From an uncultured bacterium (lineage in GTDB: Bacteria > DUMJ01), in contig CAZZLK010000021.1 of NCBI GenBank assembly GCA_964655195.1, positions 3,377 through 67,376 of the forward strand: a stretch of DNA of 64,000 nt, in the 5' to 3' direction. The position numbers were made by a program, and so were the translations under genes. This document shows, in pieces, positions 201-37,117 of the stretch. Below the pieces are notes generated by a model. It made no database searches and had not been told where the DNA came from. It saw only the letters and a program-made list of their open reading frames with translations. Position 1 is the first letter of the stretch, and each line of letters opens with the position of its first letter.

Positions 201-1376
201 GTGAAAAGATATATCAAATACTTTAATGCAGAGTCGGTAACTGAAGGACATCCGGATAAGATAGCTGATCAGATCTCTGATGCTATCCTAGATAGTTATT
301 TAGAGAAAGATCCAGAGTCGAGAGTTGCCTGTGAAACCTTAACTACGCTTGGATTGATCCATGTAACAGGAGAGATATCTAGTAGGGCAATGATAGATAT
401 AAACAAGGTAATAAGAAACACAGTAAAGGAAATAGGATATACTGATGCATCTTATGGACTCGATGCTGATAGTTGTGGAATACTTGTGTCTCTTAAAGAA
501 CAGTCTCCGGATATAGCTCAGGGCGTCATAAAGGACAAAGATATTGGTGCTGGAGATCAGGGACTTATGTTTGGTTATGCAACCAACGAAGCTATGGATA
601 TTATGGAAAGTGCTTCATATATGCCTACACCTATAATACTAGCTCATCGCCTAGCTTATAGACTGGCTGAGGTAAGAAAATCTGGCTTTCTTTCCTATTT
701 AAGACCCGACGGAAAGACTCAGGTCACGGTGGTCTATGATGGAGATAGACCGGTAAGGGTAGATAGGGTGGTCATTGCTGCACAACACGATCCTGACGTA
801 GATATGAACAAACTCAGAGAAGAGATTATAGAATATGTAATAAAGTATACAATCCCTAAAGAATGGTTAGATAAAGATACAAAGTACTATATAAATGCTA
901 CTGGAAGATTTGTAATCGGTGGACCGGCAGGAGATGCTGGACTTACTGGCAGAAAGATAATAGTGGATACCTACGGTGGAATGGCAAGACACGGAGGAGG
1001 ATGTTTCTCTGGTAAAGATCCTACCAAGGTAGATAGGTCTGCTGCTTATATGGCTAGGTATACTGCTAAGAACATAGTGGCTAGTGGATTAGCAGATAAG
1101 TGTGAAGTACAGGTGGCCTATGTGATAGGGGTAAGCGAACCAATCTCTCTATATGTAGAGACATTCAATACTGAAAAGGTTGACCCTGAAAAGTTAAACA
1201 GAGTAGTAAGAGAACTTTTTGACTTTAGGCCCAAGAGCATAATAGAAAATTTCAATCTCAGAAGGCCTATCTACAGAAAACTGGCAGCTTACGGCCACTT
1301 TGGAAGAATAGATCTGGATTTACCTTGGGAAAGGCTTGATAAAGTAGATGAATTAAAGAATGCCTTTAACATATGA
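201..1376 (+). CDS. metK: S-adenosylmethionine synthetase
   Basis: Hallmark MetK motifs [16 protein letters not shown] and [22 protein letters not shown]. Length 391 aa. GTG start at 201 with GGAGGTG 4 nt upstream. Confidence 0.95.
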
Positions 1377-3288
1377 TATTCTTATAGATAGAAATGCCCC
1401 GAAAGATTTGATTTTTTCTTATTCTTCGAATAACGTCCTCCGGATAGGAGATTATGTTGCGGTTCTCTTAAAGGGACATCTGGCGAAAGGTTATGTAATA
1501 AAAGAAAACAAGGAAGTATCTGTCCAAGACTCAAAGATGGTCTTGGACAGAATATTTGATGTGCCTTTAGTCTTACCCCATCTTTTAGATCTTGCATATT
1601 GGATTTCTGAGTATTATATATGTAATCTCTCTCAGGCATTAGCAACAGTAATTCCCCCAGAGATAAGGAATATAGATGTAAAATATGATGGTACCTTAAA
1701 AGTTAAGGTGCCAAAAACAAGAAGAAAGAAAAAGAAAAAAGGTTATGCAGGTTACATACCCCTTTCTGACTATGAAACTCCTCTTCTAGGGGAATACAGA
1801 AATCTTTTAGTAAAGCTTCCAATCGAAGAGAGGCTTAGTGTCTACTTGAAACTTATAGAAAAAGAAAGAGATAATGGCAAAGGAGTAGTTGTACTATTCC
1901 CCGAAGTAGATACCCTCCTAGCAGTAGAAGATAAGTTTAGAAAGGAATATGAAGGGGATATCGCCATGTTATACAGTGGACAGAGCCCTGCAGTAAAGAA
2001 TGAGGAATGGTGGCGTATAAGGTATGGCAAGGTTAAAATAGTCTTAGGAACCAGATCAGCCATATTTGCCCCACTAGAAAATCTAGGATTGATAATTATT
2101 GATGGGGAAGAGAGTGACAGCTATAAAGATGAGAGTAGACCTCTCTATGATGCTAGGACGATAGCTTACAGGATTCAAGAATTGTTAGGATGTAAGGTTA
2201 TATTTGGAAGCAGTACCCCTTCATTGGATACATATAAGAGGGTCACAGAGAACAGAATAAATATCATTACCGAAGATAGAACAAGGGATCTGAGTAATAT
2301 AAAATCAGTAAATATGAAAGGGAGAAGGGGTTTTCTCAGCAGAGAACTGATACATTATTGCAAGGTCTCCTTGGCTAGAAAAAAACAGATACTTATACTG
2401 GTCAATAGAAAGGGATATTTTACCCTTGAAGTCTGTAAGAATTGTGGGTATATCGAGAGATGCCCAAACTGTAATATTGCGCTAGTATATCATAAGGATG
2501 AAGGACTTGAATGTCACTACTGCGGATATAGTATAGATAAAATGGATCAGTGTCCAGAATGTGGGGGAAAAATGGAACTGTTTGGTTACGGTGTAGAGAG
2601 GATAGAAGAGATACTACAGAAGATATTCCCTAAAGCTAGAATAGCCAGAATGGATGCAGACCTTCCCACCAAAGAGATTAACGAGATATGGGAGAGATTC
2701 ATAAACGGGAATATAGACATTCTGGTTGGAACGCAGATGATAGCGAAGGGTTTTCGTCTCCCAAATGTTGCCCTAACTGGAATTTTAGCCTCAGACTTGG
2801 CTCTGAATCTACCTGACTTCAAAGTTAGCGAAAGAATCTTTCAGCTTATATATAGCTTGGCTGAACAAACAGGGAATAACAAATATTTAGTGATTCAGAG
2901 TATGCTTCCCAGTTATTATCCTATAAAGTATGCGAGCAGGTTGGATTATGAGAGCTTCTACAGATATGAATCTCAACTACGGAGGTCTCTTGGATATCCT
3001 CCCTATAGTCACATAGTAAGAATAGTCGTCTCCGGAAAAGATGAGGAGAGTGTAAAAACTATAGCGGCCTCTCTAGCTCTTGACATAGAGAGAAGATTGA
3101 GGATAGACTATTCAGGGCCTGCTAGATGTCCTTTCTATAGGATAAAAAAGACATTTCACTGGCATATTCTTTTGAAGATAAAAGACCTAACTGTAGACAT
3201 AATGAAAGTTGTAAAAGAACTTGTAGGGGCTTATAATTATAAAGACATTGGTATAATGGTAGACGTAGATCCTGTGTCTATGTTATAG
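1360..3288 (+). CDS. priA: Primosomal protein N' (PriA) homolog with degenerate ATPase/helicase motifs
   Basis: N-terminal 3' DNA-binding-domain-like region. Cys-rich zinc module [38 protein letters not shown]. PriA-like blocks GTRSAIF and GTQMIAKGF. Overlaps metK by 17 nt. No Walker A: [14 protein letters not shown] sits where GVTGSGKTEVYL is expected. The DEEH box reads DGEE at nt 2101-2112. The arginine-finger region reads AEQTGNNK. Confidence 0.85.
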
Positions 3289-4676: not shown

Positions 4677-5931
4677 GATAATAGAAGCTAAGAAGATAGC
4701 TTACGAGATTCTCCTATCAGTGGAAAGAAAGATGTCTTATGCTAATACCTTAATGAGAGAGAGATTGAGTGAAATCCCTTCAATATACAATCCCCTTATA
4801 ACTGATATTGTATATGGGGTATTGAGAAGAAAGAATACATTAGACTGGTATATATCAAACTTCGTAAAAACAGAAAGGTTAGACCTAGGTCTCCTTACAA
4901 TCCTTCGTATAGGAGCTTATCAGATTTTGTACCACAGTACTCCTATACCACTTGTGGTGAATGAGGCTGTAGAAATGGGGAAGATTCTAGTAAGTAGGAA
5001 GGCTAGCAGATTAATAAATGCAGTACTTAGAAGGATAGCAACTACCGATCTAAAGCCAGAAGAAAAAACAATAGTCTATTCCCATCCTAAATGGCTTATA
5101 GACAAATGGGAAAAGGAGTTGGGAGAAGAAGATACAAGATTACTGTGTGAGAGGAACAATAACCCTATGCCACTAAGCTTCCGGGTGAATGTCTTAAAAA
5201 CAGATATAGAGACAATAGAGACCGCTCTTACTAAAAGAGGATTAACCGTTACAAGAGGTAAGTTTAGCAGAAATTGCCTAATCTTAAAGGAGGGAGAGAT
5301 AACCCCTATAGTGGAGCTAGAAGATGAGGGTAAGGTTTTTATTCAGTCAGAGCCATCAATGGTTGTAGTAGAGCTATTGGATCTTAACCCTGGACTCAGA
5401 GTTTTAGATGGATGTTCTGGCATCGGAGGTAAAACCACCTACATCGCAGAACTTATGTCAAATATCGGAGAGATCATTGCTGTAGACAAAGTTAAAGACA
5501 AATTAAAATTCCTTAAAGCACTGGCTATCAAGAGGAACATATCAATAATTAGGAGTATTGAGAGCCCAGTAGAAGATCTGAAACCCGAAGAGATAGGATA
5601 TTTTGACAGGATATTGCTAGACGTCCCCTGCTCGGGGTTAGGCACTCTTTCTAGAAAGCCAGAGATAAAATGGAGGCTAAGAATAGATGATATCAGTAAG
5701 TTGTCTGAGATGCAGAAGAAGATACTCAATAGTGGTTCTAAGTTTTTGAAGCCTGGAGGAATCCTAATCTATAGCGCCTGTACAATCTCTAGAGAAGAAA
5801 CTTATGATATAATAAAATCGTTTATAAGTGAAAATAGAGATTATTTTCTTATAGAGGAAAGACAATTCCTCCCACATATAGATGATGTGGAGGGGTTTTA
5901 TATAGCCAAAATTCGGAGAGGCTATGCGTAG
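4669..5931 (+). CDS. rsmB: 16S rRNA (cytosine967-C5)-methyltransferase RsmB/Sun (NusB-like N-terminal domain plus MTase)
   Basis: Motif DVPCSGLGTLSRKPEIKWR and a C-terminal SAM-MTase fold. Position after fmt is as in many bacteria. Confidence 0.88.
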   Translation: MNKIIEAKKIAYEILLSVERKMSYANTLMRERLSEIPSIYNPLITDIVYGVLRRKNTLDWYISNFVKTERLDLGLLTILRIGAYQILYHSTPIPLVVNEAVEMGKILVSRKASRLINAVLRRIATTDLKPEEKTIVYSHPKWLIDKWEKELGEEDTRLLCERNNNPMPLSFRVNVLKTDIETIETALTKRGLTVTRGKFSRNCLILKEGEITPIVELEDEGKVFIQSEPSMVVVELLDLNPGLRVLDGCSGIGGKTTYIAELMSNIGEIIAVDKVKDKLKFLKALAIKRNISIIRSIESPVEDLKPEEIGYFDRILLDVPCSGLGTLSRKPEIKWRLRIDDISKLSEMQKKILNSGSKFLKPGGILIYSACTISREETYDIIKSFISENRDYFLIEERQFLPHIDDVEGFYIAKIRRGYA

Positions 5932-6943
5932 TATCCTTGGGATAAATAGTGAGGAATTAAGAGATATCCTTATAGAGAAAGGATATGAGCCATACAGAGT
6001 TCGCCAGATATTGGAATGGATATATGATAAAGCAGTATTGGATTTTTACTCGATGAGTAATCTACCAAAGGAATTACGAAATTTTCTATCCAGTAACTTT
6101 TCCGTAATACCATTTGATCTGGTGACTTATGCCCAAGATGAGGAAACAATCAAGTTTGTCTTTAAAACTGAAGATAATCTCACATTTGAATCGGTAGTAA
6201 TATTCCATCATAACAGGATAACTCTCTGTCTCTCCTCCCAGATAGGGTGTCCCATAGGGTGTAAATTCTGTGCTACTGGTGAATCTTTTCATAGAAATCT
6301 TACATATGAAGAGATAATAGGACAGTATATCTTTGCTAGAAGTTATGTAAAAAAAGATATACGCAGTATAGTATTTATGGGGATGGGAGAACCTTTTCTG
6401 AATGAGGAGAATGTATTCAGAGCGATAGATACATTTATCCAGGAGTTAAATATATCTCCAAGGCACATAACTGTTTCTACATCTGGAATCCCTCGAGGGA
6501 TAATAAATCTGGCTCACAAACATCCTAAGGTCAGACTGGCATTCTCTTTATGGACCCCTGACGAGAGAAAAAGAGAAGGGCTAGTGCCTTTAGCAAATAC
6601 TTATAAGTTAGAAATTATTCTAAGAAGTCTAAAAGAATACGTAAGTATAACTGGTAACAGGATTTCAGTCGAATATACACTGCTCAAAGGAATTAATGAT
6701 GATATAGATGATGCCCATAGACTTGTAGAGCTTTTTAAGGATGTCCCTGTATTTTTCAATGTAATACTTTACAATCCTAAGGACAGAGATACTGAAGCCT
6801 ATAGGACATCTGTAAAAGAAGCCTTAAGATTTGTTGATCTGATAAAAAGTTTAGGGAAAGAGGCTTATCTGAGGATAAGTAAGGGAGAAAGGATCTCAGG
6901 AGCCTGTGGTCAATTGAGGACCGCCTATGAGAGATCTAGGTGA
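5924..6943 (+). CDS. rlmN: 23S rRNA/tRNA adenine-C2 methyltransferase RlmN (radical SAM)
   Basis: CxxxCxxC cluster SQIGCPIGCKFCATG. C-terminal catalytic Cys context GACGQL. Confidence 0.9.
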   Translation: MRSILGINSEELRDILIEKGYEPYRVRQILEWIYDKAVLDFYSMSNLPKELRNFLSSNFSVIPFDLVTYAQDEETIKFVFKTEDNLTFESVVIFHHNRITLCLSSQIGCPIGCKFCATGESFHRNLTYEEIIGQYIFARSYVKKDIRSIVFMGMGEPFLNEENVFRAIDTFIQELNISPRHITVSTSGIPRGIINLAHKHPKVRLAFSLWTPDERKREGLVPLANTYKLEIILRSLKEYVSITGNRISVEYTLLKGINDDIDDAHRLVELFKDVPVFFNVILYNPKDRDTEAYRTSVKEALRFVDLIKSLGKEAYLRISKGERISGACGQLRTAYERSR

Positions 6944-8411
6944 AAGATTTATTATCTTAGAAGAGTCTAAGGGAGATAGGATAAGAGCTTATGACAAACT
7001 ATTAACAAGGTTTGTTAGTCTAAGACAGATAAGAACTAATCTCGGAGTAGGTAAGGTTATAGCTGTATTGGATAGAATTATAAATCTAAATGATGAGTTC
7101 CTAAAAGTTATTGGGTATCAGGCGTTAGATAATGGGATACTATATGCTATAGAAGAGATCCCTCCACAGGAAAATGTAGAGATAAGAAACAATATAAAAG
7201 AGCTATTACAGGTTACAAGGTATATAGGTAGGATGTTTGAGTATCTTAATGCCCAAGGTTTAAGAATAAAGTTGCCAGATATAGACAAGATATATAAAGA
7301 AAGCGACATAAGGTATCTTGTATCTCCCCTAGATTTGATAGACATAAATAATCCGGAAAAAGTGCAGAGTAAGGAGGAGATATTAAATATTCTCGCATCC
7401 TTCTTTATGAACTATGCCCCCCAATCGTTAAGGGATACTTTGTCTTCACTTATTGAGAGAAATATAATATCTAAGCTTAATAATGTAGAGACGCTGGTAA
7501 ATATGTTGAATACATTCATCCTTCAGGAGGAACGAATGAGAACTAAGTCGGACAGTAAAAAGATTGCTGAAGAGGTAAAAAGAGAGAAGAAAAGAATAAG
7601 TCCCTGGGTCTTTATCATAACAGTACTTCTTGTCCTTGCTGGTATTAGCGTCTGGTTATTATATTCTCTGGGAGAAAGATTATTCTTCTCCGAAGGGACA
7701 ATACCAGACGTTATAGTCCCTGATATAATAAATAGGCCCCTTCCTGAGGCATATAGTATTCTTAAGGCTTCAGGGCTTAATATAGAGATCTCTGGATTGG
7801 AATACAGTAGCGCCATTCCTTCCGGGAATATCATCTCGCAGGACCCTAGTGGAGGATTAAAAGTAAAAGCGGGAAGGAATGTAAAAGTAATAATAAGTAA
7901 AGGGATCGAGCTTGTTAATGTTCCCAATATCGTAGGGCAGGAATTAGGTAATGCTAGGAAAATCCTGGAATCAGTAGGTTTGAAGATAGGGGATATAATA
8001 GAAACCCCTACCAGGACAGTCCCAAATGGTATAGTACTCTCACAAAACCCCAAATATGGTAGTATTACTAGTAAAAATTCTCTAGTAGCTGTAGAGATAT
8101 CCAAACATCTCCAGAGTAATATGCCTAATTTAATAGGCAAGACCCAAGAGGAAGCTGAAAGTTTATTAAGATCTCTCGGTCAGTACATACTTGTGATTAA
8201 AGAGAGAGAAAGCGATAATCCCGGGGTTGTCATATCTCAAAATCCCCCGGCTAATACATCCTTACTGCAGGAGATTCCCAGGATAGAGATTACAATAGGA
8301 ATTCCTAAAAAGGCTATCCCTCAACCTCCATCACATCCAAATCTAGAAGAGGTACCAATCGAAGGGCAGACAGAGACCTCACCCAATACTGAGACATTGC
8401 CATCAGAGTAG
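6927..8411 (+). CDS. PASTA-domain membrane protein with degenerate N-terminal Ser/Thr-kinase-like domain (PrkC/PknB-derived pseudokinase)
   Basis: One TM helix (ISPWVFIITVLLVLAGISVWLLY) followed by three PASTA-like repeats (e.g. PDIINRPLPEAYSILKASGLNIEI...NIISQDPSGG..KVKAGRNVKVIISKG). The N-terminal ~150 aa aligns to kinase subdomains but reads RFIILEESKGD in place of the Gly loop, VSLR for VAIK, RIKLPDID for HRD and SPLDLI for DFG. It occupies the prkC slot after rlmN. Confidence 0.7.
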   Translation: MRDLGERFIILEESKGDRIRAYDKLLTRFVSLRQIRTNLGVGKVIAVLDRIINLNDEFLKVIGYQALDNGILYAIEEIPPQENVEIRNNIKELLQVTRYIGRMFEYLNAQGLRIKLPDIDKIYKESDIRYLVSPLDLIDINNPEKVQSKEEILNILASFFMNYAPQSLRDTLSSLIERNIISKLNNVETLVNMLNTFILQEERMRTKSDSKKIAEEVKREKKRISPWVFIITVLLVLAGISVWLLYSLGERLFFSEGTIPDVIVPDIINRPLPEAYSILKASGLNIEISGLEYSSAIPSGNIISQDPSGGLKVKAGRNVKVIISKGIELVNVPNIVGQELGNARKILESVGLKIGDIIETPTRTVPNGIVLSQNPKYGSITSKNSLVAVEISKHLQSNMPNLIGKTQEEAESLLRSLGQYILVIKERESDNPGVVISQNPPANTSLLQEIPRIEITIGIPKKAIPQPPSHPNLEEVPIEGQTETSPNTETLPSE

Positions 8412-8415: not shown

Positions 8416-9240
8416 ATGAGAGTTATAGATACTTTACAGATAAGTGACTGTGTAGAAGAATTATGCAAAAGGTTAAATTATAAACTAAATGATAGGGTTT
8501 TATCCCTTATCAAAGACTCAGCAAAAAGAGAAACTTCCAGTATTGGTCAGGATGTATTCTCCCAGATGTTTACCAGTTATAGACTGGCAGAGGAGAATAA
8601 GACTCCTTTATGCCAGGACACAGGGATGGTCTCTGTATTTCTAGATGTAGGCCAGGAAGTATTTTTAAAAGGTCTTCCTGTAGAAGAAGCTATAAACATC
8701 GGAGTAAGGAGAGCTTATACGGGTTCCTTTTTTAGATGTTCTGTAGTAAAAGACCCTATAGGTAGAAGAGAGAACACAATGGATAATACTCCGTGCATTA
8801 TACATACCAGAATTATCGAAGGGGATAAGATTAGACTTTATATGCTGATAAAGGGTTTTGGAAGTGAAAATGCAACGGCATTAAGAATGTTTCCTCCTAC
8901 CGCCAGTAAAAAAGATATAGAAGAATTTTTACTGGATCTGGTGAAAGAAAAAGGTATAAATGCCTGTCCTCCACTTTTTATTGGGATAGGCATAGGAGGA
9001 ACCGCAGACTATGCACTGAAACTCTCCAAGGAAGCATTGCTTCAACTTGAACCAATGGATGAATGGGAGTCTTACCTGTTGAAAAAGATTAATAGTCTAA
9101 GAATAGGACCGGCAGGGCTAGGTGGCGATATTACAGCGGTTTATGTAAAGGTAAAGTCCTTTCCAACCCATATAGCAGGCTTACCGGTAGCTATAAATAT
9201 CAATTGCCATATACTTAGAGTAGGGAGTGTGATCCTGTAG
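8416..9240 (+). CDS. Class I fumarate hydratase (or L-tartrate dehydratase) alpha subunit, Fe-S type
   Basis: CQDTGMV motif of the FumA/TtdA N-terminal domain. 274 aa. Confidence 0.85.
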   Translation: MRVIDTLQISDCVEELCKRLNYKLNDRVLSLIKDSAKRETSSIGQDVFSQMFTSYRLAEENKTPLCQDTGMVSVFLDVGQEVFLKGLPVEEAINIGVRRAYTGSFFRCSVVKDPIGRRENTMDNTPCIIHTRIIEGDKIRLYMLIKGFGSENATALRMFPPTASKKDIEEFLLDLVKEKGINACPPLFIGIGIGGTADYALKLSKEALLQLEPMDEWESYLLKKINSLRIGPAGLGGDITAVYVKVKSFPTHIAGLPVAININCHILRVGSVIL

Positions 9241-9244
9241 CGCT

Positions 9245-10386
<1,142 letters not shown>

Positions 10387-12982: not shown

Positions 12983-13477
12983 ATGATAAGGTTCACTTTT
13001 CCTACATTTATATTCCAGATTATAAACTTCTTGGTCACCCTGTACTTGATATATAGGTTTGTCTATAACCCTATAGCCAGGTATATATCTAAAAGGCAGG
13101 AGAGTATAGAGAGTGAGCTTGAGAGGGCTAAAGCTGAGAGAGAATCAGCTGAGGCCCTGAAATTAGCGTATGAAGAGAAGTTAAAAGAGGCACAAAGACA
13201 GGCGGAAGAGATTATAGAAAGGGCTAAACTTCAAGCAGAGGAAGAAAGAAAACAGATATTAGATAGGGCCCAGAGGGAGGCTCAAGCTCTGTTTAACAAA
13301 GCTCAGAACGAACTTCTCCTAGAGCGAAAACATGCGATAGAAAAATTTAAAGAGGAAATTACAGAAATAGTACTCGACCTGGTATCAAAACTTATTATGG
13401 TAGAATTCAACAGTAAGGATAAGATTAGAGAGAAAATACTGGAAAAGTATATGGAGGGGATAAAGAGTTATAAATGA
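12983..13477 (+). CDS. atpF: F0F1 ATP synthase subunit b
   Basis: N-terminal TM helix followed by a long charged coiled-coil (E/K/A/R-rich). 164 aa. Confidence 0.85.
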
Positions 13478-15518
13478 GTGCCACCTCAATTTCAAGTACC
13501 ATAGACGTCTTAACCGAAGAGTTGGTTAAAACAGCCATAAGAGAAGATAGAGAAGAGGATTATAAGTCTCTTCTTAGAAATCTTATAGATGAACTTACCT
13601 ATAACCCTGAACTGAGTAATCTATGGGAAAAAGGGGATGTTATTGAAAAGAAGAGGGTTATAAGAGAGAGATTTTCAGACGCCTCTCCTAGATTCTTTAG
13701 CTTTGTCTCCAAAATTATAGATTCCAATTTGGAGGATTCTCTCTACAGCATCTATCTCAGATTTATTGAGTTATTAGATCACAACCAGTTTTCAAAGGTA
13801 AGAGTAGAATTACCATTTCCTCTGTCGGAAGATAAGATAGAAAGTTTAGAATCATTCCTCTCCAATCTTCTTAACAGGGATGTTGTATGCTCCATTCATA
13901 TTAACGAGAACATTATAAATGGAATTAAGGTAGATCTAGAAGAAGAAGTGATAGACTTATCTCTAAAGACTCAACTAGATATCCTAAAAGAAGATCTGGA
14001 AAACATAGCGGTAGAAGATTCTTTCTATGAGATATTAGAAAAGATCAAAGAAAAAGTATCTTCTTTCTCTGTAAAGCCCTTAAGACTCTCTCTGGGACGA
14101 GTAGAAAGTATAAGAGACTGTGTAGTAAATGCCTCTGGGTTAAAGAATGCAAGATACGGGGAGTTGGTATTATTTCCTGATAACGTCTACGGAATGGTGA
14201 TGAGTTTAGAAGAAGATTCTACAGGTATTATACTTTTAGGGCCATCGGATAAGATCTCCGCAGGAGATACCATAAGAACAACCGGCAGGGTGTTAGAAGT
14301 CCCTGTAGGAGAAGAGCTTATAGGAAGGGTGATAGATCCCCTCGGCAGAGCATTAGATGGAGGTCCCCCTATAGAAGCTACTAAGACCAGAAGAATAGAG
14401 AATCTTGCTCCAACAGTAGTTGAGAGAGAACCGGTAAATACCCCCCTGCAGACAGGATTAAAGGTGATAGATGCATTATTTCCCATTGGAAGAGGACAGA
14501 GGGAATTAATAATAGGTGATAGACAGACGGGAAAGACCGCTATAGCTATTGATACCATCCTCAATCAGAAGAATGAAGATGTTATCTGTATATATGTAGC
14601 TATAGGACAAAAGGCAACAACGGTTGCTGAGATAGTCAAAATACTGAAAGAGAGAGGAGCGATGGATTATACAATTATCGTTTCTGCATTCGCCAGCGAA
14701 CCAGCATCTCTACTATATATAGCTCCATACGCAGGATGCGCTATAGGTGAAGAGTTTATGTATCAGGGAAGAGATGTATTGATAATATACGATGATCTAT
14801 CTAAGCATGCAAAAGCTTATAGAGAGATCTCCCTCCTTTTAAAGCGGCCCCCGGGCAGAGAGGCTTATCCTGGAGATATCTTTTACTTACATGCAAGACT
14901 TCTGGAAAGATCGGCAAAACTTAACAGCTATCTTGGTGGGGGATCTTTAACCGCGTTACCTATAGTAGAGACTCAGCTAGGAGATATCTCTGCCTATATA
15001 CCAACAAATCTAATTTCTATTACTGATGGACAGATATATCTGGATGCCTCGCTCTTTCATGAAGGAATTAGACCAGCAGTGGACATAGGACTCTCTGTAT
15101 CTAGAGTAGGTGGCAATGCCCAGATTAAAGCTATGAGGCAGGTAGCCGGAAGATTGAGGCTAGATCTTGCACAGTATCGAGAGGTAGAGACATTTGCCCA
15201 GATATCTACAGATATAGATCCCGCTACTAGGGGGTTATTAGAAAGAGGAGCTAGGATAAGAGAGATACTGAAACAGCCACAGTACAGTCCTATGGAAGTG
15301 ATAGATCAGGTTATAGTTCTATTTACCGTAACCAGAGGATATATAGATGAGATAGCTATAGAAGAAGTTTCTCATTTTCAGAATGGGCTATTAGATTATA
15401 TAAACAGAAACTACAAAGTTTTAAAAGATAAAATAAAGTCAGAAGGTTTAACCGAAGAAAATATAACAGAACTGACTAGGGCTATATTTGAATTTAAAAG
15501 GACATTTAGTAGCGAGTA

Positions 15519-15519
<1 letters not shown>
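13474..15519 (+). CDS. atpA: F0F1 ATP synthase delta (OSCP)-alpha in-frame fusion protein
   Basis: 681 aa. Residues ~1-180 align to delta/OSCP: [47 protein letters not shown] resembles E. coli delta [45 protein letters not shown]. From ~181 it is canonical alpha: [27 protein letters not shown] and Walker [19 protein letters not shown]. No stop or start codon lies between the parts; the junction ..[19 protein letters not shown].. is near nt 14011. Confidence 0.85.
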
Positions 15520-18193: not shown

Positions 18194-18197
<4 letters not shown>

Positions 18198-19441
18198 AGA
18201 TAAAGATAGAAGGTGGAGTAAGGCTGAATGGGGAAGTGAGTATAATCGGGGCTAAAAATTCTGCCCTCCCAATAATGGCTGCCACGTTACTCACTGATGG
18301 AACCACTGTCATTCACAATATACCTGATTTAAAAGATGTTCATACTATGATGAGTATGCTGGAAAATTTTGGAGCTAAGTTAAAATTCAAGAAGAATATC
18401 CTCGAGGTTACTATAAATGAAATACTTCCCGTAGACCCACCGGAAGACCAGGTAAAGCAGATGAGGGCTTCTTTTCTCGTTGCAGGACCCCTTCTGGCTA
18501 GACTTGGCAAGATAAGGATACCTCTTCCAGGTGGCTGTCAAATAGGTTCCAGGCCTGTAGACCTCCATCTAAAAGGATTTCAAGCTTTAGGGGCTAAAGT
18601 AACTAGTGAACACGGTTACGTTGACCTGGAGACTAAAGGCTTAAAGGGAGCTTCTATATACCTTGACATTCCTACGGTTACAGGTACTGAAAATATTATG
18701 ATGGCAGCAGTCCTGGCAAGAGGTAAGACGGAGATCATCAATGCTGCCAAAGAACCTGAGGTTGTTGATCTTGCCGAAGCATTAAATAAGATGGGAGCAA
18801 AGATAAAGGGCGCAGGAACAGACAGGATAGAGATCGAAGGGGTAGACTCTTTATCCCCTGTAGAACATACCATAATACCTGACAGGATTGAGGCAGGGAC
18901 ATTTCTTGTGGCTGGAGCAATTACAGGTGGAGAAGTCACTATTAAAGGTGCAAGAAAAGACCATCTTGGAGCAGTACTGGGCAAACTCGAAGAGATGGGT
19001 CATAAGATAGAAGCAGAAGAGGAAAGAATAAGGATTATAGCAAAGAACGTAGGTAAAGCCTGCGATATTACCACTGCTCCTTATCCTGGATTTCCTACAG
19101 ATATGCAGGCTCTCTTTGCCAGTCTATTAGGTGTATCTAAGGGAACTAGTATTATAACAGAAACTATCTTTGATAGGAGATTTGGTTTTGTAGATGAACT
19201 CATCAGGATGGGAGCAAATATGAGGGTCCAAGGGAATACACTTATAATAGTAGGGATAAAGAGGTATTCTGGAGCCAGTGTTACCGCTGGAGATTTAAGA
19301 GCAGGCGCAGCTCTAATAATGGCAGGACTAAATGCTGAGGGAACTACGGAGATATCAGGAGTAGAACATATAGAGAGAGGATACGAAGCTATAGATAAAA
19401 AGCTCAAGATATTAGGGGCTAAGATTTCCATCGAACCTTAA
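18194..19441 (+). CDS. murA: UDP-N-acetylglucosamine 1-carboxyvinyltransferase
   Basis: N-terminal GAKNSALPIMAATLL and active-site Cys region PGGCQIGSRPVDLH. Follows atpC as in Bacillus. Confidence 0.93.
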
Positions 19442-19445
19442 ATAT

Positions 19446-21395
19446 GTGAGATTCATAGTCTTTAATATGATTAAAGAAAGGAGGGCTAAATTGACTAGGA
19501 AGATAATACTGATATTAGCTTTGCTTATCTTCTTCTGTATTATCTTTAATAGCTATGTCTTATCAGGCGAAAAGATTAAGATATCTGGTATTGAAATCCA
19601 GGGGAACCGTAATATCCCTAAAGAAGAGATAATAAAGATACTCGACCTTCCAGAAGAGATAGACGAAGACATAGTTAGATCAGGACTACAGAGGCTCTTA
19701 AATACAGGATACTTTTCCAATATTGACGCTAGTATGAAAGTGGATGGAAGTAAGTATATCTTAGTTATTAGCGTAAGTGAAGCTCCAGTCTTTAAAGAGA
19801 TTAAAGTGGTGGGTAATAAAGATATAGATACTGCAGAGATAGTAAACCTTATCTCTTTAAAGTCAGGCACCACTATAAATCTTATCACCTTAAACCAGGA
19901 TTTAGGTAAGATTGCAGAACTCTACAAGAGTAGAGGATACATAGGAGCAAACTTCCAGGTCAATATAACTGAAGATGGAATAATAGTCATAAATATAAAC
20001 GAGGGCCCAACTGTTTCAGGTTTTATATTTAAAGGAAACACTGTAATAAAGTCGGAAGATCTGGATAAAGAGCTAGAAAAATACAGAGGAAAGACCTTGA
20101 ATACAAATCTATTAAAGGATATGGCACTAAATATTCAGGAGTTCTATAATAAGAAAGGATATCCTGCCTGTGTTATTCTCAATGCGTACAGCGATACAAA
20201 TGGAGTAGTGACATTTGAAATAGGTGAAGGTAAGATTGCAAAGATAGTTATCGATGGAAATAAAAAGACAAAAGACTACGTAATTCTCAGGGAGATGGAA
20301 ACCAAAGCTGGAGACGTTCTTAATACTACTAAAATTCAAAAAGACCTTCAGAAGATATTTAACCTTGGTTATTTTTCAGATGTAAATGCAGATATCAAGT
20401 CTGCCGAAACCCCTGGTGAAATTATCCTAACAGTCAGGGTAGTGGAGCAACTCACTGGACAGGCAAATGGTGGTATAGCCTATAGCACCGCCGAGGGTTT
20501 TTCTATAATATTAGGAATTAAAGACTCAAATCTATTGGGAACAGGAAGAGATTTAGGTCTGTATCTAAATATAGGAGTTACCGCTCGTGATATAACACTA
20601 AATTATACCGAGCCGTATGCTTTCGGAACCACAGGAACCTTAAGTACTTATCTAGTATGGAGGAAGGCAGATAATACAGATATAATAGAGAACACATCAA
20701 TTAACTATTCGGAGGATAGAAAGACCCTTGAATTGACGTTGACTAAACCGATAGATATAAACCTAAAGGGTACGATAGGATTCTCTTATAATGATATAAC
20801 TTATCAGGCTAAAGAGGATGTAACACTACCAGAGATGATAAAGTCTGGTATCTCTAGCGCCCTAGTCCTGGGAGTTGCCAAAGATACAAGAGATGTAATC
20901 TTAAACCCTATGAAGGGGGACTACTACTCACTAAATATAAAGCAGGGCGGAGGAATATTCGGTGGAGACTTCAATTTTACAAGACTCAATATCGACCTAA
21001 GATGGTATTTCCCAACATCAGACAAAGATACACTTGCTTTAAACTGCACCTTGGGATTAGGTTTTGGTGAGCTACCATATATAGAGAAGTTCAGTGTTGG
21101 AGGGGTAAATTCTGTAAGGGGACTTCCAGAAAACTGGAAAAAGTCAGACTATTTAGAACTTATAAGTCTTGAATATAGAAACAAGATACAGGATAATGTA
21201 TTTGGTGTGATATTTTTAGACTTAGGAAATGGATGGAAGAGTGGAGAAACGATAAATCTTACAGATCTATATACTGGAATAGGCCTTGGGTTGAGAATAA
21301 TGGTCCCTCCTATGGGGTTATTAAGACTAGATTATGGCTGGGGTAGTTATGACTGGCAGGGAAGATTCTATTTTAGTGTGGGACAAAAATTCTAA
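19446..21395 (+). CDS. bamA: Outer membrane protein assembly factor BamA/Omp85 (POTRA repeats plus C-terminal beta-barrel)
   Basis: Signal/TM segment, POTRA-like repeats (ISGIEIQGNRNIPKEEI...) and a C-terminal barrel ending ..GRFYFSVGQKF. Confidence 0.8.
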   Translation: MRFIVFNMIKERRAKLTRKIILILALLIFFCIIFNSYVLSGEKIKISGIEIQGNRNIPKEEIIKILDLPEEIDEDIVRSGLQRLLNTGYFSNIDASMKVDGSKYILVISVSEAPVFKEIKVVGNKDIDTAEIVNLISLKSGTTINLITLNQDLGKIAELYKSRGYIGANFQVNITEDGIIVININEGPTVSGFIFKGNTVIKSEDLDKELEKYRGKTLNTNLLKDMALNIQEFYNKKGYPACVILNAYSDTNGVVTFEIGEGKIAKIVIDGNKKTKDYVILREMETKAGDVLNTTKIQKDLQKIFNLGYFSDVNADIKSAETPGEIILTVRVVEQLTGQANGGIAYSTAEGFSIILGIKDSNLLGTGRDLGLYLNIGVTARDITLNYTEPYAFGTTGTLSTYLVWRKADNTDIIENTSINYSEDRKTLELTLTKPIDINLKGTIGFSYNDITYQAKEDVTLPEMIKSGISSALVLGVAKDTRDVILNPMKGDYYSLNIKQGGGIFGGDFNFTRLNIDLRWYFPTSDKDTLALNCTLGLGFGELPYIEKFSVGGVNSVRGLPENWKKSDYLELISLEYRNKIQDNVFGVIFLDLGNGWKSGETINLTDLYTGIGLGLRIMVPPMGLLRLDYGWGSYDWQGRFYFSVGQKF

Positions 21396-21404
21396 GTATG
21401 GGAG

Positions 21405-21881
21405 TTGATGTATAAAATGGATAAGAGGTTATTAATTTTGGCATTGATTATAGGTGCAGTTGGTATTCTTCTTTGGGGGCTGAGTATCCCGAGGTATGGA
21501 TTTGCGCTAGACACATTTAAGATTGGGTATGTAGATATAAACAAAGTCATAGAGAATCATCCCAGGATCGAAAAGGTAAAGAAGGATATAAATGACTTTG
21601 CTATGAAAACTAAGGCAGAATATCAGAAACAGTTAGATGAAGCGGTAAAAGATAAAACAGCTGTTGAGGCTCAACAACTAAAGGCGGAATATGAAGCCAG
21701 ACTAAATCAAGTTGTAGCTCAAAGACAACAGGAGATGTTAAAGCCAATACTCGATGACATTAAATTGGCAGTGAGAGATATATCTAAAAAAAGAGGCATA
21801 GATATAGTATTAAGGAGTGAGATAGTAATAACTGGTGGTATAGACATTACTGATGATGTCATAAAGGCTATAAAGAAATGA
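21405..21881 (+). CDS. skp: OmpH/Skp-family periplasmic chaperone
   Basis: 158 aa, signal peptide then a long Q/K/E-rich helical region. Canonical position between bamA and lpxD. Confidence 0.7.
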   Translation: MMYKMDKRLLILALIIGAVGILLWGLSIPRYGFALDTFKIGYVDINKVIENHPRIEKVKKDINDFAMKTKAEYQKQLDEAVKDKTAVEAQQLKAEYEARLNQVVAQRQQEMLKPILDDIKLAVRDISKKRGIDIVLRSEIVITGGIDITDDVIKAIKK

Positions 21882-22888
21882 ATTATAAGTTAGAGGAGAT
21901 AGCCAGATTTATAAACGGCAAACTTTTTGGGCCCCCAGACATGGTGATAACTGGAGTAAATTCTCCAGAGTTAGCAGGTGAGAAGGAAATATGTATCATC
22001 TATGATGAAAAGTTTGTAGATGTGATAAAAAATAGAAATGTTGGAGCAGTCATAATCAGAGAAGGATTAAAAGTTGATAAGCCTCATATAGTAGTATCAG
22101 ACCCTAGAGCTATTATGCCAGTTATTCTAAATCTTTTTGCTAAAAAAAAGGAGCTTCGAGGTATAGATAAGTCTGCTATTGTAGGAGATAACTGTACTAT
22201 TCCTGAGAGCTGTTTTATAGGTCCCTATGTAGTTATAGGAGATAGGGTAAAGCTTGGAGAAAGAGTTATCATTATGGCTGGAAGTAAGATTGGAGACGAA
22301 GTTATCATAGGGGATGACTCTTTTATCGGCTACAATGTAATAATAGACGATAGTAGTGTTATAGGGAAGAGGGTCAAAATTCAACACGGAGCGGTTATCG
22401 GGAAAGAAGGCTTTGGCTTCTACAGGGGTCAGGAAGGTTATATAAGGATTCCTCACCTTGGCAATGTGGTAATAGAAGATGATGTAGAGATCGGAGCTAA
22501 TAGTGTGGTTGATAGAGCTACTCTTGGATCCACTATTATTAAGAAGGGTACGAAGATAGATAGCCTGGTATTGGTAGGACATAATGTAAAGGTAGGGGAA
22601 GATACTGCTATAGCTGGACAAAGTGGTGTAGCAGGAAGTTCAGAAGTAGGCAATAGATGTATGATAGGAGGACAGGTAGGCATAGCAGATCACCTCAAGG
22701 TTGGAGATAATACAATAATCTTTGCCAAGACAGGGGTTATAGGAGATATACCTTCAAATTCTGTTGTATCTGGTATACCGGCAAGACCTCATAGAGAGTG
22801 GTTAAAAGCACAGGCTATTTTATTAAAACTACCAAAAATAATCAGGCAGTTAGGGATAAAGGATGTGGCAGACGACAGTAAAGAGTAA
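21878..22888 (+). CDS. lpxD: UDP-3-O-acylglucosamine N-acyltransferase
   Basis: Left-handed beta-helix hexapeptide repeats throughout. Position after skp. Confidence 0.88.
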   Translation: MNYKLEEIARFINGKLFGPPDMVITGVNSPELAGEKEICIIYDEKFVDVIKNRNVGAVIIREGLKVDKPHIVVSDPRAIMPVILNLFAKKKELRGIDKSAIVGDNCTIPESCFIGPYVVIGDRVKLGERVIIMAGSKIGDEVIIGDDSFIGYNVIIDDSSVIGKRVKIQHGAVIGKEGFGFYRGQEGYIRIPHLGNVVIEDDVEIGANSVVDRATLGSTIIKKGTKIDSLVLVGHNVKVGEDTAIAGQSGVAGSSEVGNRCMIGGQVGIADHLKVGDNTIIFAKTGVIGDIPSNSVVSGIPARPHREWLKAQAILLKLPKIIRQLGIKDVADDSKE

Positions 22889-23678
22889 AGTAGAGATAAG
22901 AGGGGTTGGACTGCATACTGGAAAAGAGAGTAGGATTATAATATCTCCAGCATCCGCAGATACAGGTATAGTGTTTAACTTTGCAAAGAATAGCTTCACA
23001 AAGATCAAAGTGGATAGTATGGTCATCTCTACCAATAGAGGGACTATTTTGGCTCATAACGAGTACTCCATATATACAGTTGAGCATATCCTTTCTGCCC
23101 TTAATGGGCTAGAGATAGATAATGTGGAGATCATTGTAGATGGTGAAGAGATACCATCCTGTGATGGAAGTGCTAAGACCTTCGTAGACAAGTTAAAAGA
23201 AGCAGGGATAGAAATATTGGATAAAAAAAGGAAAGTAATTCAGCTTCCGGAACCTGTATGGATATTTAATGGAGAGAAGGGAATATTTGCACTACCCAGC
23301 GATAGACTCTCTATTTATTACACGATAGAATTTCCTCGGATAGGAAAACAGTGGATATTCTATGAACATAATCCCTTGAGATATGAGCTGGAGATTGCAC
23401 CTGCCAGGACATTTGGTTTTGAAGAGGAGATAGAGATGCTAATCACTGAGGGTTTAGCAAAGGGAGGAAACCTTCAGAATTCCGTTATAGTTGGGAAAAA
23501 TGGATACTCGTCACCACTCAGATATCCAGATGAGTTTGTAAGGCATAAACTCTTGGACCTTATGGGAGACATATATTTGTTAGGGAAACGTATTAATGCT
23601 ACAATATTTGTAGTAAAAGGTGGTCATAATCTTCACGTAGAATTAGTAAAGAAGATAAAAGAGGTGATCGATGATTGA
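22863..23678 (+). CDS. lpxC: UDP-3-O-acyl-N-acetylglucosamine deacetylase
   Basis: N-terminus ..KVEIRGVGLHTGKESRIIISPA and zinc-ligand context. 271 aa. Confidence 0.92.
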   Translation: MWQTTVKSKVEIRGVGLHTGKESRIIISPASADTGIVFNFAKNSFTKIKVDSMVISTNRGTILAHNEYSIYTVEHILSALNGLEIDNVEIIVDGEEIPSCDGSAKTFVDKLKEAGIEILDKKRKVIQLPEPVWIFNGEKGIFALPSDRLSIYYTIEFPRIGKQWIFYEHNPLRYELEIAPARTFGFEEEIEMLITEGLAKGGNLQNSVIVGKNGYSSPLRYPDEFVRHKLLDLMGDIYLLGKRINATIFVVKGGHNLHVELVKKIKEVIDD

Positions 23679-24162
23679 TAGAGAGATTTCAACTTTGAAC
23701 ATATATGAACTCTTAAATATACTACCCCACAGATATCCATTCTTATTGGTGGATAAGATTATAGAATACGAAAAGGGGAAGAGGGTAAAGGGTGTAAAGA
23801 ATGTGACCATAAATGAACCATATTTTCCTGGACATTTTCCGGAATTCCCGATTACGCCAGGTGTTATCATTATAGAAGCTATGGCACAGATAGGTGGGCT
23901 CCTTTTACTAGAAGAGGCAAAAGAAAAGGATGAGCTGGCAATATTAAGTGGGGTAGATAAAGTCAGGTTTCGTAGAATGGTAAGACCCGGAGATCAGATA
24001 GTGATAGAGGCAGAAATTCTTCAAAGAAAGATTAATTTTTGCAAATTAAAGTGTACCGCATACGTAGAGAGTAATGTGGTAGCAGAAGGTGAGTTATTAA
24101 TAGCGTTATACAAGGAGGATTCTATCCGTGACATATATACATCCAACAGCGATAATAGATGA
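23671..24162 (+). CDS. fabZ: 3-hydroxyacyl-[ACP] dehydratase
   Basis: Hot-dog fold with YFPGHFPEFPITPGV and EAMAQIGG motifs. Confidence 0.9.
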   Translation: MIDREISTLNIYELLNILPHRYPFLLVDKIIEYEKGKRVKGVKNVTINEPYFPGHFPEFPITPGVIIIEAMAQIGGLLLLEEAKEKDELAILSGVDKVRFRRMVRPGDQIVIEAEILQRKINFCKLKCTAYVESNVVAEGELLIALYKEDSIRDIYTSNSDNR

Positions 24163-24952
24163 GTCGGTCAAGTTAGGAATCGATGTGGAAATTGGGCCCT
24201 ATGTAGTAATAAAACATGATACTGTTATAGGAAGTGGTACTAAGATCGATGCCCATTGTATTATAGGCCCATGGGTCACTATAGGGAGTAAGTGTGAGAT
24301 ATACGGAGGATGTTCTATAGGTGCTCCGCCTCAAGACATAAGATATAAAGGTGAAAGAAGTTTTGTAATAATTGGAGATAATAACATCCTCAGAGAGTTT
24401 GTTACTATACATAGAGCAACAGGAAAAGACAAAGCCACTATAATAGGAGATGGCAATTTCCTTATGGCATATTCCCATATAGCCCATAACTGTAAACTTG
24501 GTAACGGGATAACTATGGCTAATTCTTCTAATCTGGCAGGTTATGTAGAAGTATATGATAAGGCTGTTATAGGAGGAATAGTTGGGATACACCAATTTGT
24601 CAGGATAGGAAGGTTAGCTATGGTAGGAGCCTGCTCTAAAGTTGTTCAGGATGTCCTTCCATTTTCTCTTGTAGATGGACATCCGGCCAAGGCTTACGGT
24701 ATAAATGTAGTTGGACTTAGGAGAGCAGGATACTCACCAGAGATCAGGAGTATCCTACAGAGGGCATTTAAAATTTTCTACTTTGCCCATCCCAACAGAT
24801 CCAAGTCGCTTACTATGCTTTTAGAGGAGCTTGACAGTATACCTGAAGTTGAAGAGATGGTAGAATTTATCAGAAACAGTAGAAGGGGGATCGTAAAAGC
24901 AGCTAAAGAAGCTTTACAATGGGACGTTCAGACATTCTTAGAAAATATGTAA
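24128..24952 (+). CDS. lpxA: Acyl-[ACP]--UDP-N-acetylglucosamine O-acyltransferase
   Basis: Hexapeptide-repeat beta-helix plus the C-terminal helical domain typical of LpxA. 274 aa. Confidence 0.9.
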   Translation: MTYIHPTAIIDESVKLGIDVEIGPYVVIKHDTVIGSGTKIDAHCIIGPWVTIGSKCEIYGGCSIGAPPQDIRYKGERSFVIIGDNNILREFVTIHRATGKDKATIIGDGNFLMAYSHIAHNCKLGNGITMANSSNLAGYVEVYDKAVIGGIVGIHQFVRIGRLAMVGACSKVVQDVLPFSLVDGHPAKAYGINVVGLRRAGYSPEIRSILQRAFKIFYFAHPNRSKSLTMLLEELDSIPEVEEMVEFIRNSRRGIVKAAKEALQWDVQTFLENM

Positions 24953-28616: not shown

Positions 28617-28742
28617 GTAGATATAATTAGTCGGATAATATATCTTATGTAAAGTAAAAATAAACTCAGACTGTCTTAGATTCTAAAATCCATCCGACTT
28701 GTTATTCTTATCTCCAATATGCTATCCTTATATAAAATGTAA

Positions 28743-28760
28743 ATTGTGAATATTGTGAAT
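28743..28760. repeat. Tandem direct repeat ATTGTGAAT x2 in the promoter region of the sugar transferase gene
   Basis: ATTGTGAAT at 28743-28751 and again at 28752-28760, in an AT-rich 179-bp intergenic region. Confidence 0.4.
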
Positions 28761-28795
28761 AAGGATTAATTTTTTATATCTTAATTTTAATAAAA

Positions 28796-30037: not shown

Positions 30038-30409
30038 CTAAGTACTAGCTTCCAGCTCCTTGAACAGGTTGACAACATAAAAAGATCTTTTATACGGGGG
30101 AACCTTAACTCATTATTCTTGGAATGGAGGAGTGGGCTATTCATATACGCTACTTACAGATTACCGGAAGAGATCTAAGTGATTGGCGTAATCCCAGTAC
30201 AGGTGGATGGTTACTGCTAGGAGAAGGAGCAAATATACTAGAAAGCTATTAAATCTGGAACAGTATTGATAGAATAAATTAGGATTAGAAGTTTCGCTCA
30301 ATTAAATTGATCCCTCACCTCTGCTGAAATATGAAAAATCAAAATTATATGGTAAAATATTACACTGTAAAATAGAGAAGTATTTGATGCCCTGGAGGTA
30401 GTTTGCTGT

Positions 30410-34584: not shown

Positions 34585-34596
34585 AATACATCCTCC

Positions 34597-36608: not shown

Positions 36609-37112
36609 ATGAGAAAGATGACGGAAGAAAGTCTAAAGGCAGCATTTGCCGGTGAGAGTCAAGCCCATATGAAGTATACAATCTTTGCCGAGATCGCAGA
36701 GCAAGAGGGTAGGCCAAATCTAGCTAGACTATTCAGGGCGATAGCAGATGCAGAAAAGGTTCATGCAACAAATCACTTGAAAGCTCTGTCCGGTATAAAA
36801 GGTTCTTCAGATAATATACAAGTCTGTATAGATGGTGAAAATTTTGAGGTCCAAGAGATGTATCCGGCGTATAATGCCATAGCAGAGCTGCAGAATGAGC
36901 CAGAGGCAAAGAGAAGTATACATTTTGCCCTTGAAGCGGAAAAGATACACTCAGCTATGTATCAAAAGGCAAAGCAAGCTGTAGATAGTGGAAACGATAT
37001 AGAAGTTGGGGATATCTACATCTGTCAGGTGTGTGGTCATACAGTAGAAGGTTCTGTCCCTGACAGATGTCCCATATGTGGTGCACCAAGAGAAAAGTTT
37101 AAAAAATTTTAA
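36609..37112 (+). CDS. rbr: Rubrerythrin
   Basis: Diiron ExxH motifs (EKVHATNH, EAEKIHSAMY) and a C-terminal rubredoxin-like CQVCGH..CPICGAP. Confidence 0.9.
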   Translation: MRKMTEESLKAAFAGESQAHMKYTIFAEIAEQEGRPNLARLFRAIADAEKVHATNHLKALSGIKGSSDNIQVCIDGENFEVQEMYPAYNAIAELQNEPEAKRSIHFALEAEKIHSAMYQKAKQAVDSGNDIEVGDIYICQVCGHTVEGSVPDRCPICGAPREKFKKF

Positions 37113-37117
37113 AAGGG

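Follow-up and report, generated by a model that had tools for sequence, protein, structure and literature searches.

The 64-kb window analysed here, a stretch of contig CAZZLK010000021.1 from an uncultured bacterium, encodes a membrane protein with PASTA repeats immediately downstream of rlmN. Its open reading frame (ORF; Table 1, where all positions are window coordinates) encodes 494 aa and starts with an ATG, beyond which the N-terminus cannot be extended in the same frame. This ATG lies within rlmN, whose last 17 nt the two genes share, and because of this overlap no PP2C phosphatase gene can lie between them. A Shine-Dalgarno-like GAGG within rlmN suggests that the PASTA gene is translationally coupled to it, and the promoter and terminator scan gave a signal at chance level. 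Upstream, Pfam resolves the order metK-priA-def-fmt-rsmB-rlmN. Downstream, the alpha subunit of fumarate hydratase begins 4 nt past the stop codon, in the slot held by rsgA in Firmicutes, and tblastn found no rsgA in the window. The gene order from priA to rlmN, followed by a transmembrane (TM) protein with three PASTA repeats, and the lack of a PP2C gene between the last two were correctly read in the initial annotation, which had been made without database searches.

The PASTA half of the protein is readily recognised. Pfam finds the three repeats with an E of 8.7e-41, and NF033483, the NCBIfam profile of Stk1-family PASTA kinases, matches residues 201-456 only, at profile positions 309-561, with 128.4 bits against a cutoff of 450. 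By these profiles, the half made of the TM helix and the repeats resembles a PASTA kinase, while the half that should hold the kinase is not recognised by NF033483. Of all segments of the protein, the second repeat is the most highly conserved, and it is the best candidate for a ligand or partner site. We also considered whether this could be a penicillin-binding protein, an identity that we rejected: Pfam finds PASTA alone, with no transpeptidase domain, and the N-terminal domain is of a kinase fold (see below).

Table 1. The PASTA gene, the predicted parts of its product and other features of the 64-kb window (residue numbers refer to the PASTA protein; AF2, AlphaFold2)
Feature	Position	Strand	Evidence and remarks
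Whole PASTA ORF: predicted pseudokinase, TM helix, three PASTA repeats, Pro-rich tail	6927..8411	+	494 aa
Predicted pseudokinase N-lobe, residues 1-82 (b1-b2-b3-alphaC-b4-b5)	6927..7172	+	AF2 secondary structure; hhalign register 3-113 to 6-131; conservation
Predicted pseudokinase C-lobe remnant, residues 83-205	7173..7541	+	alphaE 90-109; catalytic-loop remnant 110-121, without conserved Asp/Asn; b7-b8 hairpin 122-132; S133-P134...D139 activation-segment remnant; alphaF 149-163; alphaH 166-177; alphaI 187-205
Juxtamembrane linker, residues 206-225, short and charged	7542..7601	+	Weak conservation, low pLDDT
Single TM helix, residues 226-253	7602..7685	+	AF2 helix; hydrophobic stretch PWVFIITVLLVLAGISVWLLYSL
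PASTA repeat 1, residues 258-325	7698..7901	+	Pfam PF03793, best stretch 262-325; AF2 alpha+beta unit
PASTA repeat 2, residues 326-395	7902..8111	+	56% invariant columns, most conserved segment of the protein
PASTA repeat 3, residues 396-460	8112..8306	+	Pfam, AF2, conservation
Pro/Glu/Thr-rich disordered extracellular tail, residues 461-494	8307..8408	+	pLDDT <50; fast-evolving, dN/dS 0.43
rlmN	5924..6943	+	Pfam RlmN_N and Radical_SAM; last 17 nt shared with the start of the PASTA gene
GAGG, Shine-Dalgarno-like	6916..6919	+	7 nt before the ATG, within rlmN; read from the sequence
Fumarate hydratase, alpha and beta subunits	8416..9763	+	Pfam Fumerase, Fumerase_C
priA	1360-3288	+	Pfam 3'BD, Cys-rich, Helicase_C and C-terminal domains; N-terminal DEAD/ResIII lobe unmatched at E<=1e-3
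ATP synthase delta (OSCP) and alpha, fused	13474-15519	+	One 681-aa ORF
murA, then bamA (Omp85 and POTRA), skp/ompH, lpxD, lpxC, lpxA, lpxB	18194-32173	+	Same block: second weak LpxB-like ORF, DUF3084, sugar transferase, msbA-like ABC exporter
MurNAc/peptidoglycan-recycling cluster	32690-35820	-	MurQ-like SIS etherase, BadF/BcrAD-type sugar kinase, NamZ exo-beta-N-acetylmuramidase
Rubrerythrin adjoining short rubredoxin-like ORF	36609-37462	+	
Stand-alone GAF-domain protein	50691-51284	+	
dnaE	60685-63987	-	Listed start TTG; database entries 1127 aa

The N-terminal cytoplasmic domain (N-domain) is invisible to kinase profiles. Even at E<=1, the Pkinase profile (PF00069) leaves the ORF unmatched, and no Pfam family matches its first 250 residues significantly; a hidden Markov model (HMM) built from 13 PASTA kinases, with all filters off (--max), does not match it at E<=10 either. 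Searches of PDB sequences gave nothing when phmmer was run with the single sequence of the N-domain, and chance-level matches only with the family profile (a quinone reductase at E 0.1). When 1.84 billion cluster representatives were searched exhaustively by phmmer with residues 1-205, the only one retrieved was that of the family itself (P0004), so there were no intermediates or distant relatives of the N-domain among them. A word-prefiltered search with the N-domain alone (6927-7670) gave no match, although the full-length query gives 15 orthologues. The orthologues have 50-92% identity over this very region, so the miss is an artefact of the prefilter and not biology. When the family N-domain (alignment A2, 16 sequences) was compared by hhalign with 13 or 35 PASTA-kinase domains, the match was not significant (P=0.07-0.08, probability <1%). 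The alignment nevertheless runs collinearly and in the register one would expect, with ERFIILE on GRYKLLQ, RAYDKLLTRFVSLRQIR on LAHDMILDRDVAIKILR, and alphaE on alphaE.

The predicted structure is more informative. The AlphaFold2 (AF2) model of the N-domain, computed on alignment A2, has a mean predicted local distance difference test score (pLDDT) of 89.6 and a predicted template modelling score (pTM) of 0.86. Its elements come in the order b1 (8-10), b2 (18-23), b3 (28-34), a helix (41-52), b4 (61-66), b5 (72-77), a long helix (90-109), a hairpin (122-126 / 129-132), and three further helices (149-163, 166-177 and 187-209). In the fold comparison, it scored 13.3 with PknG of Corynebacterium glutamicum (192 residues aligned), 12.6 with PknG of Mycobacterium tuberculosis, 12.5 with PknE, 12.2 with M. 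tuberculosis PknB (1MRU; 188 residues aligned, 13% identity), and 11.9 with PknB of Staphylococcus aureus. Around 190 of the 210 residues of the model superpose on many independent kinase structures. The N-domain is thus predicted to have the bilobal fold of protein kinases, and an unrelated fold, which we had also looked for, was not supported. The full-length model is confident for residues 30-205, and adds the TM helix, three PASTA units of the alpha+beta kind and a disordered tail. The predicted protein therefore has the architecture of the NF033483 family: a kinase-fold domain, a TM helix and C-terminal extracellular PASTA repeats.

One could argue that AlphaFold produced the kinase-like fold as an artefact and that the N-domain is in reality an unrelated orphan fold, given the lack of a significant sequence match to any kinase and an alignment as shallow as 16 sequences. 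We regard this as extremely improbable. The model is of high confidence, its superposition extends over nearly the whole domain and many independent structures, and the profile alignment, obtained independently, stays collinear from one end of the domain to the other and hits structural hallmark positions of kinases (F8/Y11, Y64/Y75, S133-P134/SPE, E151/alphaF-Asp, and K183/alphaH-I Arg).

To place the catalytic residues, we used hhalign in local and greedy modes (the -glob alignment was meaningless), with -mact 0.05, which yields 190 aligned columns collinear over template positions 4-280. We considered the positions at least 85% conserved in the 35 PASTA kinases and numbered them as in their template; the register of the catalytic residues is that of a low-confidence profile alignment. 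In this register, G18, G20 and G21 of the Gly-loop correspond to a variable residue or a gap, with LEESKGD occupying the place and varying across the family. The Lys of the VAIK motif (K40) is replaced by an invariant Arg (R33). The HRD motif (H132-R133-D134) lands on I114-K115-L116 and becomes V/I/A, K/R and L/I/V across the family; K136 becomes P, E or D; N139 becomes K or E; and D152-F153-G154 falls within a deletion. No conserved catalytic Asp or Asn lies nearby, in whichever register. The loss of the catalytic triad is conserved in 16/16 sequences, and a pseudokinase is defined by a kinase fold in which at least one of the VAIK Lys, the HRD Asp and the DFG Asp is lacking.

The domain is not featureless, as several hallmarks of the fold are kept. 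Y11 corresponds to F8 and Y75 to Y64 (16/16 in both cases), A28 to A21, V37 to V30, and I86 to I75. The SP of the SPE/APE motif corresponds to S133-P134, the Asp of alphaF to E151 (16/16), and the Lys and Arg of alphaH-alphaI to R178 and K183 (16/16). From the order of the elements in the model, the Glu of alphaC probably has its counterpart in the conserved D/E49 of helix 41-52, which could pair with R33. With 205 aa against the canonical ~270, the kinase-fold domain has lost some 65 residues, in internal deletions that remove part of the b3-alphaC region, alphaD, the activation segment from DFG to APE, and alphaG.

These results lead us to revise some details of the initial annotation, which held that every catalytic motif is replaced. 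In substance this is right: the profile-profile alignment was searched for an intact Lys, Asp or DFG and places none, since R33 stands at K40 and DFG lies in a gap. The HRD motif had been positioned one residue off. The motif SPLDLI had been taken for DFG, whereas its first two residues, S133-P134, align with SPE (APE); DFG is indeed absent and the segment between DFG and APE essentially deleted, and SPLDLI is better understood as what is left of a merged DFG...APE segment. Finally, the loss of around ten residues at the N-terminus of the kinase does not hold, since E6-R7-F8 aligns with G9-R10-Y11 and the N-terminus is only about three residues shorter.

Could the shrunken fold still be an enzyme, or a nucleotide-binding switch, by way of non-canonical residues, as in WNK, Escherichia coli YegI, SelO, and SidJ? 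R33, D139, E151, R178 and K183 are invariant, purifying selection is strong (see below), and activity is known for some kinases without the canonical motifs (YegI, cited in PMC9674922). However, the Gly-loop is variable, and the adenine pocket, as mapped from PknB, is changed: the position of V25 (residue 18) holds Arg or Lys and that of A38 (residue 31) is often Ile, which argues against nucleotide binding. In addition, the remnant of the catalytic loop has no conserved acidic residue, the activation segment is gone, and E151, R178 and K183 map to structural positions (the Asp of alphaF; the Lys and Arg of alphaH-alphaI) and not to catalytic ones. Residual non-canonical catalysis or nucleotide binding appears unlikely from these alignments, and we give very little credit to a protein that would work through it.

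To understand how widespread and how constrained the gene is, we collected its homologues. The full-length query retrieved 15 orthologue clusters of 488-498 aa and 54-93% identity, and the family is confined to one 50%-identity cluster. PASTA is the only Pfam family with which these proteins are annotated, and the most specific names given to them are 'PASTA domain-containing protein' and 'beta-lactam-binding protein with PASTA domain'. The gene is present in six GTDB species-representative metagenome-assembled genomes (MAGs), all labelled 'MAG: bacterium', of which we analysed loci of ~20 kb each (L001-L006). The six are JBMFMV01, CALGNK01, JAOACC01, DUMJ01, JBMFOH01 and JACIXS01. All six show the order metK-priA-def-fmt-rsmB-rlmN-PASTA-fumAB-upp-wecB-atp, wherever the contig reaches (those of L001 and L002 start in priA and in rlmN, respectively). 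The overlap between rlmN and the PASTA gene is conserved in L001-L006 and in L045, and their linkage is also found in L045/L046.

The N-domain has 45 invariant residues over 16 sequences with identity down to 50%. We computed dN/dS, the ratio of non-synonymous to synonymous substitution rates, by the Nei-Gojobori method against L045, the closest relative for which DNA was available (dS 0.35, unsaturated). The ratio is 0.094 in the N-domain, 0.115 in the juxtamembrane and TM segments, 0.090 in the PASTA module, and 0.43 in the C-terminal tail. The N-domain is thus under purifying selection as strong as that of the sensor module, which rules out that it is a decaying remnant. The same values bear on the idea that only the PASTA ectodomain matters, for example in a periplasmic protein that binds peptidoglycan or positions hydrolases, the cytoplasmic domain being an inert anchor or stabiliser. 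This would be in line with the conservation of the second repeat (56% invariant columns) and with the existence of PASTA-only membrane proteins with short cytoplasmic tails (P0028, P0031). Yet an inert remnant would drift, as the unconstrained tail does, and the N-domain, with its invariant residues, evolves as slowly as the repeats. We therefore find an inert anchor highly unlikely.

Several observations point to the origin of the gene. Its nearest relatives outside the family are true PASTA kinases (38-40% identity), and the non-family PASTA kinases P0016 and P0017 keep the C-terminal end of the kinase domain. In Lachnospira (L010), the genes are arranged as fmt-...-rsmB-rlmN-PP2C-PASTA kinase-rsgA, and the same arrangement is found in Ruthenibacterium (L025). 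The PASTA gene of the window occupies this slot of Firmicutes, without the PP2C gene and without rsgA: the adjacent cognate phosphatase of the rlmN-prpC-prkC-rsgA arrangement is present in L010 and L025 and absent here. For comparison, among 80 unrelated metagenomic rlmN loci (6 kb on each side), taken from an RlmN-seeded scan and encoding generic RlmN of 35-42% identity rather than sister lineages, neither a PASTA gene (0/80) nor a PP2C gene (0/80) was found, and a single locus (1/80) had a weak kinase-like ORF, on the opposite strand. Descent from a PASTA kinase is supported by the match to NF033483, by the outgroup being PASTA kinases, by the slot, and by the lack of such linkage in the controls. 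The gene had initially been placed at the position of prkC, and these data agree with it.

We then searched for the partners of a phosphorylation pathway. Pfam found no Pkinase, PP2C, FHA, GpsB/DivIVA or IreB among the scanned ORFs of the window, which are nearly all the non-overlapping ones except the 75-164 aa ORFs of the atp operon, atpG, atpD, the ORF at 23671-24162, and metK. The custom kinase HMM and a phmmer search for PP2C were also negative on all six-frame ORFs of the window and of L001-L006. Hence, the initial claim that the protein has no PP2C partner stands locally, over these 64 kb and six ~20-kb loci, and is shown at that scope only.

These negatives also count against a different role, in which another part of the genome encodes an intact Hanks kinase and the protein serves it for docking, as its substrate or as an allosteric partner, in a pathway that still phosphorylates, as in MviN or, among eukaryotes, HER3/KSR. 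N-lobe residues that align with the back-to-back interface of PknB are conserved (L33 and D76 are those of PMC13434768), the juxtamembrane stretch contains Ser and Thr residues, and the pseudokinase of MviN is phosphorylated by PknB and recruits FhaA (PMC12599244). But no kinase, PP2C or FHA gene occurs within the 64 kb or the six related loci, and the juxtamembrane Ser/Thr positions are not conserved (0/20 invariant columns). We consider such a partnership rather unlikely, albeit less so than the alternatives discussed above. The opposite extreme is that the hosts lack any Hanks kinase or PP2C, and that the protein forms a complete phosphorylation-free PASTA pathway by conformational or oligomeric coupling to a cytoplasmic partner. 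This is a conceivable extension that we hold only tentatively and would not expect to be true.

Taken together, the best explanation for the gene is that its product is a receptor pseudokinase, which derives from a Ser/Thr kinase of the PrkC/PknB/StkP type with PASTA repeats and signals as a non-catalytic platform. We regard this explanation, as a whole, as probable. A number of points weigh against it. The homology between the N-domain and kinases is not significant at the sequence level, be it by hhalign (P=0.07, probability <1%) or by the Pfam and HMM searches, so that the assignment of the fold rests on a predicted model. In the full-length AF2 run, this model loses confidence for residues 1-28, and the juxtamembrane segment 208-225 is also of low confidence. 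The residue mapping derives from the profile alignment and secondary structure, not from superposition, and the hhalign register of alphaC is visibly wrong, in conflict with the AF2 secondary structure. A ligand site made up of R33, D139, E151, R178 and K183, which are polar and invariant, is still conceivable. Lastly, the kinase and PP2C negatives cover the 64-kb window and the six ~20-kb loci only.

If the protein is such a receptor pseudokinase, as the initial annotation had proposed and our results support, it would have lost phosphate transfer. The PASTA ectodomain would still bind ligands derived from peptidoglycan (peptidoglycan fragments, lipid II) or periplasmic cell-wall proteins and enzymes, and the TM helix would convey the signal, or the localisation, to a platform of kinase fold that is rigid and non-catalytic. 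The platform could work by dimerisation, by the docking of cytoplasmic proteins of the cell envelope or of division, or by both. A possible surface is the conserved face of the N-lobe formed by R7, D23, L26 and Q/E/D65, which in the alignment correspond to the back-to-back dimer residues R10, D30, L33 and D76 of PknB; L33 and D76 are the residues that were mutated to break this dimer in PknB and StkP (PMC13434768). The role is made more plausible by a dN/dS of 0.09 in a catalytically dead domain. Like the loss of phosphotransfer, signalling by scaffolding or dimerisation is what we infer, in this case from the aligned N-lobe residues and from precedents among PASTA kinases and pseudokinases: the fourth PASTA repeat of StkP binds the hydrolase LytB directly (KD 22 uM, PMC10434722), GpsB binds PrkC at its cytoplasmic domain (PMC5786024), and the pseudokinases of EssB/YukC and MviN are scaffolds (PMC12599244).

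The closest known systems are the PASTA Hanks kinases (Bacillus subtilis PrkC, M. tuberculosis PknB, Streptococcus pneumoniae StkP, S. aureus Stk1; NF033483). They share the architecture, the homologous TM and PASTA half, the slot after rlmN as in Firmicutes, and the signature positions retained in the N-lobe. In contrast, the domain described here is ~65 residues shorter and lacks the Gly-loop, the Asp of HRD, the Asn, DFG, and the activation loop, with Arg in place of the Lys; it is followed by a short juxtamembrane linker, the gene has no PP2C next to it, rsgA is missing, and the host is a diderm with lipopolysaccharide (LPS) genes. EssB/YukC from the secretion system of type VIIb (T7SSb; PDB 6Z0F; PMC12599244, PMC9600267) is also monotopic with an N-terminal cytoplasmic pseudokinase, whose catalytic motifs and Gly-loop are degraded and whose activation loop is attenuated, and it is a dimerising scaffold. 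However, its ectodomain has no PASTA repeats and it is encoded in the T7SSb cluster, while our ORF has no Pfam match to YukC/EssB at E<=1, PASTA being the only significant family, and no T7SS genes are among the annotated genes of the window.

The pseudokinase of M. tuberculosis MviN/MurJ (ActPs3; PDB 3UQC; PMC12599244) is likewise linked to the cell wall and tethered to the membrane. It has lost all catalytic motifs and its activation loop is deleted, and it regulates peptidoglycan synthesis without catalysis. It differs in being actinobacterial, fused to the flippase MurJ and not to PASTA repeats, and a substrate of PknB that recruits FhaA; no gene for a kinase or an FHA protein was seen here. 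The eukaryotic receptor pseudokinases (HER3, ROR, RYK and others; PMC13259870) follow the same logic: the ectodomain binds a ligand, one TM helix crosses the membrane, and a kinase fold devoid of catalysis signals by dimerisation or as a scaffold. This is an analogy only, as the lineage, the ligands and the orientation of the TM helix relative to the kinase differ.

In its accessible part, a 2025 atlas of bacterial Ser/Thr kinases (bioRxiv 10.1101/2025.01.12.632604) classifies the homologues of PF00069, assigns PASTA kinases to the canonical 'KAPD' family, and describes seven pseudokinase families (ActPs1-3, GLW, CP1, DLHK, and DYD), none of which is linked there to PASTA domains. The N-domain is invisible to PF00069, and any profile-based kinome census seeded with it would have missed the family. 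We found no published description of a PASTA-linked pseudokinase family, and likewise none in the literature on Dictyoglomus and PASTA or Hanks kinases. The parts, a PASTA receptor and a bacterial pseudokinase, are known; their combination and the degree of reduction have not been described so far.

The association of PASTA repeats with a degenerate kinase is probably not unique, because two other loci encode PASTA membrane proteins of this sort. They were found in MAGs of Oscillospiraceae/Eubacteriales (L028:8741-10717 and L029:8624-10729), and their kinase domains are full-length and still recognisable, scoring 75-79 bits where the remaining kinase ORFs of the retrieved loci score 177-411. 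In these domains, VAIK reads ITVR, HRDIKPQN reads HLGLSPEV, and DFG reads DFS. The proteins have an N-terminal CxxC...CxxC segment and their genes adjoin neither rlmN nor PP2C. They look like an independent and less reduced PASTA pseudokinase.

The Rfam and tRNA scans of the window were empty, hence there was no rRNA to classify the host. The nearest named relatives of its DnaE are from a 'Dictyoglomi bacterium' MAG (80%), Dictyoglomus spp. (55%, with the same length of 1127 aa), Thermincola (54%), and Atribacteria (50%). Given the length of the database entries, the true start of dnaE is probably upstream of the listed TTG. Several MAG names point to an origin in hot springs or thermophilic digesters. 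We tentatively place the host in an uncultured lineage in or near Dictyoglomota. The block of outer-membrane and LPS genes (Table 1) shows that it is a diderm, an uncommon setting for a PASTA protein at a prkC locus. Among other genes of the window, the delta and alpha subunits of ATP synthase are fused, and this fusion is kept in L001-L006 and L045/L046; a peptidoglycan-recycling cluster lies on the reverse strand; and the pair formed by rubrerythrin and a rubredoxin-like ORF, as well as the GAF-domain protein, are consistent with an anaerobic lifestyle and unrelated to the PASTA protein.

PASTA kinases are central to the growth and division of the cell wall in Gram-positive bacteria, and both their activation and the roles that depend on catalysis are debated (PMC13434768). 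The family described here, which public annotation presents only as 'PASTA domain-containing' or 'beta-lactam-binding' proteins, is narrow and its hosts are uncultured, which limits its practical impact at present. Its lineage kept the receptor, the slot and a constrained kinase fold, while it dropped every catalytic element and the partner phosphatase. If the pathway were indeed free of phosphorylation, it would be a natural kinase-dead experiment on the catalysis-independent roles of PASTA kinases. The retention of the domain without catalysis argues that the kinase fold itself has a selectable non-catalytic function.

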